Below are positions 1,895 to 2,352 of a stretch of DNA of 18,636 bases, piece by piece. The position numbers and the translations under genes are program-made. The first letter of the stretch is position 1; the number at the start of each line of letters is the position of its first letter. A model generated the notes under the pieces. The model was given only the letters and a program-made list of their open reading frames with translations. It was not told the origin of the DNA and made no database searches. The DNA is from a virus (lineage: Duplodnaviria; Heunggongvirae; Uroviricota; Caudoviricetes): the IMG/VR virus record IMGVR_UViG_2690316267_000010. One strand, given 5' to 3'.

Positions 1895-2352
1895 AGGTGA
1901 TTCTCCAGACGAAGACCCAGAACACCGGCAATCTCTTCCAGCACCTTGCGCTCTTCCGGCTCAATTTCGCCGTCTGCCTCCGCAATGGCCACCGCCACAT
2001 CCAGCACATCTTCCGCTTCACGCGTATCGTGTTTCACATCCTCGATCTCACGTAACGCCGCACGACGACCAGTTTTAAAGTTCGTATCCAGCTGACCGAT
2101 AATGGTTGCGCTAATCGCATTAATTTCCGAGGTAAACGCAGACAACGCAGGCTGATTACGTAAGACCTGTTCGATCTTCGCTTTCTCGGAAGCCTCACAT
2201 TCACCATCTGCACAGGCCACCAGGTATGCGGCGTTAATCACCGCCTGTGCCAGATCGCGTTTTTCAAACTTTTTAATTTCCGTTGCCGCTCTGCGGGCTT
2301 TTTTTACCAAAAATACCAAACATCGTGACGTTCCTTTGGGTGGGTGAGCCAA
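1891..2352 (-). CDS. TerB-like (tellurite-resistance TerB family) domain protein; start uncertain, possible frameshift at A7 tract
   Basis: 153-codon ORF with two acidic ADGE-type helical repeats (LVACADGECEASEKAKIEQVL and AIAEADGEIEPEERKVLEEIAGVLGL) typical of TerB-like proteins. Track start is TTG; the best RBS (AAGGAA + 8 nt) serves an out-of-frame ATG at 2323 that stops after 16 codons. Confidence 0.5.
   Translation of the reverse strand: MAHPPKGTSRCLVFLVKKARRAATEIKKFEKRDLAQAVINAAYLVACADGECEASEKAKIEQVLRNQPALSAFTSEINAISATIIGQLDTNFKTGRRAALREIEDVKHDTREAEDVLDVAVAIAEADGEIEPEERKVLEEIAGVLGLRLENHL

Follow-up and report, generated by a model that had tools for sequence, protein, structure and literature searches.

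A single-A insertion at the 5' end of tciA in Escherichia coli lambdoid prophages, probably an old frameshift allele in decay

Prophage neighbourhood of the tciA gene

The window, that is the whole stretch of 18,636 nucleotides that was analysed (IMG/VR record IMGVR_UViG_2690316267_000010), carried a TerB-family gene on its minus strand. Positions 1850-2500 (651 nt) were identical to Escherichia coli strain E2 (NZ_CP104509), where the matching 18.6 kb was annotated as the late region of a lambdoid prophage. The genes in NZ_CP104509 were arranged in the order antiterminator Q, a lipoprotein-like small ORF on the opposite strand, a 65-aa ORF, an AraC-type HTH gene, tRNA-Ile, tRNA-Arg, tRNA-Arg, the TerB gene, a 55-aa DUF3927 gene, a large DUF6645 gene and a holin. 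In phage JLK-2012 the corresponding pair was named tciA and tciB after phage P1. The TerB gene is called tciA below; it is a lambdoid-prophage moron (accessory gene) of the TerB family that resembles P1 TciA and sits in the late region. The following features were identified at the locus:

1727..1894, minus strand: tciB-like gene encoding 55 aa (phrog_1470, E = 4e-30; DUF3927 in RefSeq)
1891..2319, minus strand: TerB-family (TciA-like) frame as annotated, open in the window (Pfam TerB)
2185..2187, minus strand: GAG codon for Glu46 of the 143-aa protein, intact in the window and TAG in most other copies with the seven-A tract (A7)
2273..2323, minus strand: 16-codon out-of-frame ORF, MFGIFGKKSPQSGNGN and stop, yielded by ATG initiation in the A7 allele
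2299..2305, minus strand: A7 homopolymer (T7 on the plus strand), spanning Lys-Lys codons 7-8 of tciA
2317..2319, minus strand: TTG 2319, the PGAP start in A7 alleles, in the TerB frame, with the 142-aa product MVFLVKKARR...
2321..2323, minus strand: ancestral tciA ATG, off-frame with respect to the TerB body in the present allele
2331..2336, minus strand: Shine-Dalgarno (SD) AAGGAA, 7 nt before the ATG and 11 nt before TTG 2319

The tciB GTG overlapped the tciA stop codon (GTGA) and had its own GGAG 8 nt upstream; this gene was undamaged in nearly all copies, irrespective of the state of the A tract. A scan for sigma-70-like promoters from the tRNAs to tciA found no site. Two terminator-like hairpins flanked the tciA-tciB pair in a cassette-like moron layout, a weak one directly after tRNA-Arg (2464-2477, minus strand) and a strong one about 165 nt downstream of tciB (1540-1561, minus strand; 9 bp with a T-run).

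Some other features of the window were also recorded. The AraC-type HTH gene (237 aa; 2771-3484, minus strand) lay downstream of the Q antiterminator and upstream of the tRNA cluster, a site usually without regulators. The tRNA gene at 2667-2742 (minus strand) was called tRNA-Met (anticodon CAT) by ARAGORN and tRNA-Ile in RefSeq; this would fit an Ile tRNA of the lysidine type, like those in the tRNA clusters that follow Q in the lambdoid prophages that Shiga-toxin-producing E. coli carry. In the last part of the window (about 17650-18636, corresponding to L124 1-985), a DUF2713 gene annotated as frameshifted in RefSeq and a truncated tRNA-dihydrouridine synthase fragment adjoined Panacea-domain and PrtN-like genes, and this end may mark the boundary of the prophage or the remnant of an integration site.

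Start codon, A tract and reading frames

The minus strand reads ...CCCAAAGGAACGTCACG ATG TTT GGT ATT TTT GGT AAA AAA AGC CCG ... TAA, with the TAA at 2275-2273 (minus strand) closing the 16-codon ORF that starts at the ATG. The gap from the SD to this ATG was 7 nt when counted from AAGGAA and 8 nt from AAGGA, and the AAGGAA itself was unchanged in nearly every copy compared. The TerB frame lies at +1 relative to the ATG and is open as far as the TGA at 1893-1891 (minus strand). Upstream of the tract, the start codons available in the TerB frame were only TTG 2352, TTG 2319 and TTG 2310, with neither ATG nor GTG. TTG 2319 starts 4 nt past the first letter of the ATG, with the SD 11-12 nt away.

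The A7 tract equals the ancestral six-A tract (A6) plus one A, and deletion of one A gave MFGIFGKKARRAATEIKKF..., a protein of 143 aa. Nine homopolymers of at least 7 nt were present in the window, and an A7/T7 run is in itself unremarkable; the significance of this one is its location and not its length. The first-pass annotation had described an SD-spaced ATG at 2323 (minus strand) that is off-frame and ends after 16 codons, and a T7 run on the plus strand at 2299-2305, and coordinates and translation agreed with it on both. Its statement that removal of one A would fuse the ATG to the TerB frame also held, the product being MFGIFGKKARRAATEIKKF... with a complete TerB/phrog_632 match.

TerB family membership and the predicted protein

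The A-deleted protein matched Pfam TerB (PF05099) over residues 26-138 with 56.3 bits (gathering cut-off 24.4). Against phrog_632 ('tellurite resistance'), the A6-corrected, ATG-initiated protein was aligned over positions 1-143 of 143, and this end-to-end match was obtained only when the protein started at the ATG. P1 TciA shared 52% identity with the A6-corrected protein over residues 1-143, while the TerB frame of the window was identical to the A6-type TciA of phage JLK-2012 at 135 of 137 aligned residues. The TTG-start protein, as encoded, is without the nearly invariant F2 and G3. PADLOC and NCBIfam gave the TerB-like gene no meaningful defence-system or equivalog assignment, and the functions attached to TciA (tellurite and colicin resistance, inhibition of cell division) would be carried over to it by name and homology only.

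In an AF2 model of a close A6-type homologue (P0001), an all-helical TerB fold was predicted with a pLDDT of 87.5, and the N-terminal 20 or so residues were of low confidence and outside the folded core. Since confidence is low there, folding need not depend on residues 1-20, and an MVFLV N-terminus would not necessarily block it; the model does not tell whether the MFG motif is required.

The gene can be compared with the P1 TciA/TerB family (PF05099, phrog_632), with which it shares the protein family and the tciB-like small membrane protein encoded next to it, and phage JLK-2012 tciA is its in-frame A6 counterpart. It differs in that the conserved ATG and MFG N-terminus of the window allele are off-frame through one extra A.

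Ancestral start and ancestral tract length

Among 29 full-length homologues, down to 50% identity, F2 and G3 were conserved in at least 90% and K7 was invariant. The N-terminus MFG-x-F-x-KK was common to E. coli prophages, P1 TciA, Erwinia jumbo phages, Pantoea, Pseudomonas and Paracoccus. Relatives from Pantoea, Pseudescherichia, Franconibacter, Pectobacterium, Pseudomonas, Brucella and Paracoccus aligned from residue 1 or the first few residues, and their N-termini read MFG..F.KK or a close variant. An MVFLVKK N-terminus was seen only in E. coli proteins of A7 alleles. PGAP called the start at TTG 2319 in A7 alleles (strain E2, O157:H7), giving a 429-nt CDS, and at the ATG in A6 copies, giving a 432-nt CDS. 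Because the N-terminus is conserved in homologues and MVFLVKK is limited to E. coli A7 proteins, the comparison identifies the ATG as the ancestral start of the family and the TTG call as an annotation consequence of the frameshift.

The nearest relatives outside E. coli read GGTAAAAAAGC(A/C), which is A6, and more distant homologues had AAGAAA at the Lys-Lys codons. With A6 in the close outgroups and in many copies from E. coli, and AAGAAA in the distant homologues, A7 is the derived state, arisen by insertion of one A into A6. The first-pass annotation had proposed looking for homologues that carry A6 and start MFGIFGKKARR; tciA of phage JLK-2012, with A6 and a 143-aa product, has both. It had also held that A7 homologues starting at the TTG would speak against a displaced start. 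A7 homologues are indeed abundant, but their TTG start is a pipeline call only.

Distribution of tract lengths

A length-agnostic pattern scan across the tract in IMG/VR gave 50 A7, 46 A6, 1 AAAGAAA, 1 AAAAAG and 2 A5 matches, and in metagenomes 13 A7 and 8 A6 matches were found with no other length. The two A5 matches (L037 and L077) were considered as a third tract state and rejected, as they share only the first 70 nt or so of tciA (SD, ATG and tract) and are unrelated thereafter. Complete RefSeq E. coli genomes were queried with an exact 97-mer made of 45 nt, A7 and 45 nt. It occurred in 549 records; the identical 45-nt flanks with A6 occurred in 3, and A6 with an alternative downstream haplotype in 88. 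The tract state was linked to SNPs on either side of the tract.

A second scan was anchored outside the segment from the ATG to the tract, which removed ascertainment bias for that segment. Among 57 copies with the A7-type background, the 29-nt out-of-frame spacing was present in 48, A6 in 5 and an alternative in-frame 5' module (MFGIFKKKT) in 4. Genuine copies in IMG/VR, the metagenomes and the second scan were of lengths 6 and 7 only. The single A8 (L176) was due to a G-to-A change after the tract, without a change in length, and this copy also had a 1-nt deletion in the next A5 run. L085 had a substitution within the 7-nt tract (AAAGAAA), a change that is silent when read in the TerB frame.

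Four IMG/VR copies (L177-L180) had the gene body of the A7 haplotype behind another in-frame 5' module, ATGTTTGGAATCTTCAAAAAGAAAACC (MFGIFKKKT), an arrangement that shows modular recombination at the tciA 5' end. Sporadic variants with frameshifted N-termini were present in the MFGIFKKKT / MLGIFKKKT allele family (P0015, P0103, P0032 and P0041), two of which, P0032 and P0041, regain the frame close to the next A-run (ATTAAAAAG). The A-rich 5' end of tciA looks like a recurrent indel site.

In the gap that separates tRNA-Arg(tct) from tciA, some 85 nt before the tciA ATG, there was a poly-G run (2406-2412; C7 on the plus strand, G7 on the minus strand). Its length ranged from 4 to 12 G among IMG/VR copies, far more variable than the A tract; it was mostly G5 with A6 alleles, and with A7 alleles it was G5 in 8 copies, G6 in 24, G7 in 11 and G8-12 in 5. 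The promoter scan found no promoter-like site around this run, which could be truly hypermutable or partly assembly noise.

Phylogeny and probable decay of the A7 lineage

In a neighbour-joining (NJ) tree of tciA copies, built for a locus that recombines, A6 haplotypes were basal and all A7 copies formed one derived clade. A7 arose on one sequence background and spread in prophages of O157:H7 and other E. coli by descent and recombination. Three small A6 groups were embedded in the A7 clade. One of them (L081/L125) had an intact background; another (L126/L127) came from two strains, from the USA and Japan, with an amber-bearing background and a PGAP 'internal stop'; the third (the L005 group) may have kept the ancestral state or be recombinant. 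The A run slips both ways, rarely, on evolutionary time scales. Reversions from A7 to A6 were rare, and some were on amber-bearing copies, in which function could not be restored by them.

The amber mutation changes GAG to TAG at codon 46. It was present in 31 of 47 scorable A7 copies and 2 of 35 A6 copies in IMG/VR (Fisher p = 1e-8 for amber against tract state, the copies not being independent), and in 7 of 12 A7 and none of 8 A6 copies in metagenomes. The two A6 copies with the amber in IMG/VR are 5' recombinants. At least 339 complete RefSeq E. coli genomes carried the amber, which PGAP flags as 'internal stop'. The TerB frame was open in the window copy and in 16 of the 47 A7 copies from IMG/VR. 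In the tree the copies with the amber made up a subclade of the A7 clade, and the simplest order of events is A7 earlier and amber later.

Selection on the two groups was compared through private polymorphisms. The ratio of non-synonymous to synonymous changes was 6N:5S for A7 and 7N:23S for A6 (p = 0.07), a comparison confounded by recombination, which breaks the tree, and by A6 counts that are dominated by old divergence between allele families. With rare variants alone the groups were alike (p = 0.59). The comparison, meant to show relaxed selection on A7, did not separate the lineages.

The A7 lineage shares two characters with frameshift pseudogenes. A conserved ancestral ORF is disrupted as a derived state, with outgroups in frame and one derived A7 clade, and a further inactivating lesion, the codon-46 amber, is present in the lineage and absent from the window copy. 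The first-pass annotation had offered a recent pseudogenising slip as one reading of the tract. A slip it is in kind, but not a recent one: the allele is old and widespread in lambdoid prophages, and the amber is nested within its lineage.

Alternative explanations of the A7 tract

Homopolymers are error-prone on several sequencing platforms, and a sequencing or assembly error in this record, as the first-pass annotation had considered, would fit that general experience. It can be rejected here, as A7 was found in 549 independently assembled complete genomes by the 97-mer as well as in 50 IMG/VR and 13 metagenome contigs, and it co-segregates with particular SNPs. The other suggestion of that annotation was a slippage-prone switch, in which replication slippage would toggle A6 and A7 at high frequency and turn TciA on and off within populations. 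The tract does lie at the 5' end of the coding region and alters the frame, A6 and A7 both occur in nature, and the few A6 copies inside the A7 clade point to reversions. Nevertheless such a switch is highly improbable: the same flanks carried A7 in 549 records and A6 in 3, genuine copies were limited to lengths 6 and 7 (the lone A8 being a substitution), tract state was tightly coupled to flanking SNPs, and two of the three A6 revertants were on amber-bearing copies that were already dead. Frequent length variation among otherwise identical sequences was not found in RefSeq (549 against 3), IMG/VR or the metagenomes. Contingency loci with poly-A, poly-G or poly-C coding tracts resemble tciA in having a tract in the 5' coding region whose length sets the frame, with occasional reversions. 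A run of 7 nt is shorter than typical contingency tracts, and unlike those loci the tciA tract is essentially two-state, stable in 549 genomes and SNP-linked, with no length spectrum seen at the population level.

The main rival is that the A7 gene is functional and under selection, with TciA made from TTG 2319 at a reduced level and the 16-codon ATG ORF acting as an overlapping leader that tunes it. The ORF is open in the window and in 16 of 47 A7 copies, TTG 2319 has the SD 11-12 nt before it, the tract substitution in L085 is synonymous in the TerB frame, the N-terminus is outside the predicted fold core, and the A7 allele is very common (549 records). In reporter constructs the three canonical start codons, UUG among them, also gave initiation at 10-100% of the AUG level (bioRxiv 10.1101/063800), and some protein may be made. 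Against this, the nearly invariant F2 and G3 would be lost, an optimally spaced ATG 4 nt upstream competes with the TTG, the amber arose inside the A7 clade and is in most A7 copies, the arrangement is absent from homologues outside this E. coli haplotype, and the allele could owe its high frequency to hitch-hiking with prophages and clones that are successful. On balance a selected, TTG-initiated gene seems unlikely, while some residual TTG-initiated expression of the A7 allele is plausible from its sequence. Programmed recoding is a very unlikely alternative, in which transcriptional slippage, or +1 slippage of tRNA-Lys on AAA-AAA-A, would restore MFGIFGKK-ARR... from the ATG. A +1 shift on A AAA AAA G would leave tRNA-Lys perfectly re-paired, but the A-site codon is AGC, which is not a stop and is not known as a rare codon. 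The flanking RNA offered no predicted structure in support of recoding, as no stable fold was found around the tract (MFE -17.6 kcal/mol, z = +1.7, less structured than shuffled sequence), although a missing prediction is no proof, and the two-frame organisation was in no homologue outside this haplotype, the others being single in-frame ORFs. Homopolymeric A/T runs are sites of transcriptional insertion in E. coli (PMC5574713), which would favour slippage. To restore the frame, however, the mRNA needs A6 or A9, i.e. a 1-nt deletion or a 2-nt insertion, whereas slippage on A/T runs in E. coli gives mainly 1-nt insertions, increasing with run length up to 9, and transcriptional deletions in homopolymers are rare (PMC5574713). 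The tciA run of 7 nt is also below the 9 As, occasionally 8, of the productive bacterial slippage sites described (PMC1088944). Genes that use transcriptional slippage, such as Thermus dnaX (A9), Shigella mxiE and the A9 fusions of IS elements (PMC1088944), are alike in having two overlapping frames joined at an A run. Unlike them, tciA has a run of 7 nt and not of 8-9 or more, needs -1 or +2 nt instead of the favoured +1 insertion (PMC5574713), and has an arrangement that is not conserved among homologues.

Interpretation and significance

The tciA A7 allele is probably an old, widely spread frameshift allele, made by insertion of one A, that would be null or strongly hypomorphic, with further decay following and with the TTG start call masking the lesion. 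The tract is most likely neither a regulatory switch nor a recoding site, and tciA most likely an ordinary decaying gene. Comparison of the copies shows the following course of events. A heritable insertion at Lys-Lys codons 7-8 turned A6 into A7 and became fixed, uncoupling the well-placed ATG and the MFG N-terminus from the TerB body; by descent and recombination the allele then reached prophages in O157:H7 as well as in other E. coli strains, and the A7 lineage gained the amber at codon 46 as a second lesion. For most ribosomes loaded at the SD, translation would begin at the ATG and end with the release of a 16-residue peptide, and full-length protein could come only from the weak, poorly spaced TTG in competition with the ATG. 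From ATG-dominated initiation and a weak competing TTG it would follow that the allele is null or a strong hypomorph on the way to a pseudogene.

The kind of event is commonplace. Homopolymer frameshift pseudogenes that are rescued by annotation likewise have a mononucleotide run near the 5' end expanded by one base, as a derived state, with further lesions in the lineage, and there too the pipeline picks a non-ATG start just downstream and the gene looks intact. What is unlike the usual case is that the A7 allele is in hundreds of genomes, with several copies per genome, and this unusual spread arises because the allele rides on recombining lambdoid prophages. The literature found on tciA and tciB consisted only of P1-type annotations and one strain-specific gene list, and this tract was not described there.

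Unless the TTG or the recoding route is in use, the finding does not evidently bear on any open question in biology. A7 might conceivably be a selected low-output variant, in which leader-gated TTG initiation gives TciA, together with coupled tciB, during late transcription, or a small fraction of ribosomes or transcripts slips on the A run and yields MFGIFGKK-ARR TciA; this is quite improbable, and if true, non-standard decoding would be the means of expressing a prophage moron that is widespread in O157:H7 and other E. coli. For the decaying frameshift allele that is preferred here, the value lies in annotation and in the history of the locus. In hundreds of RefSeq E. coli genomes the gene is entered as intact, its product being a 142-aa 'tellurite resistance TerB family protein' that starts MVFLVKK; on the comparative evidence this start is a pipeline rescue of a frameshifted allele, and the true start of the family is the ATG 4 nt upstream. 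The A7 lineage also gives a small, clean example of one lesion that spread through co-resident lambdoid prophages by recombination and was then followed by a second.
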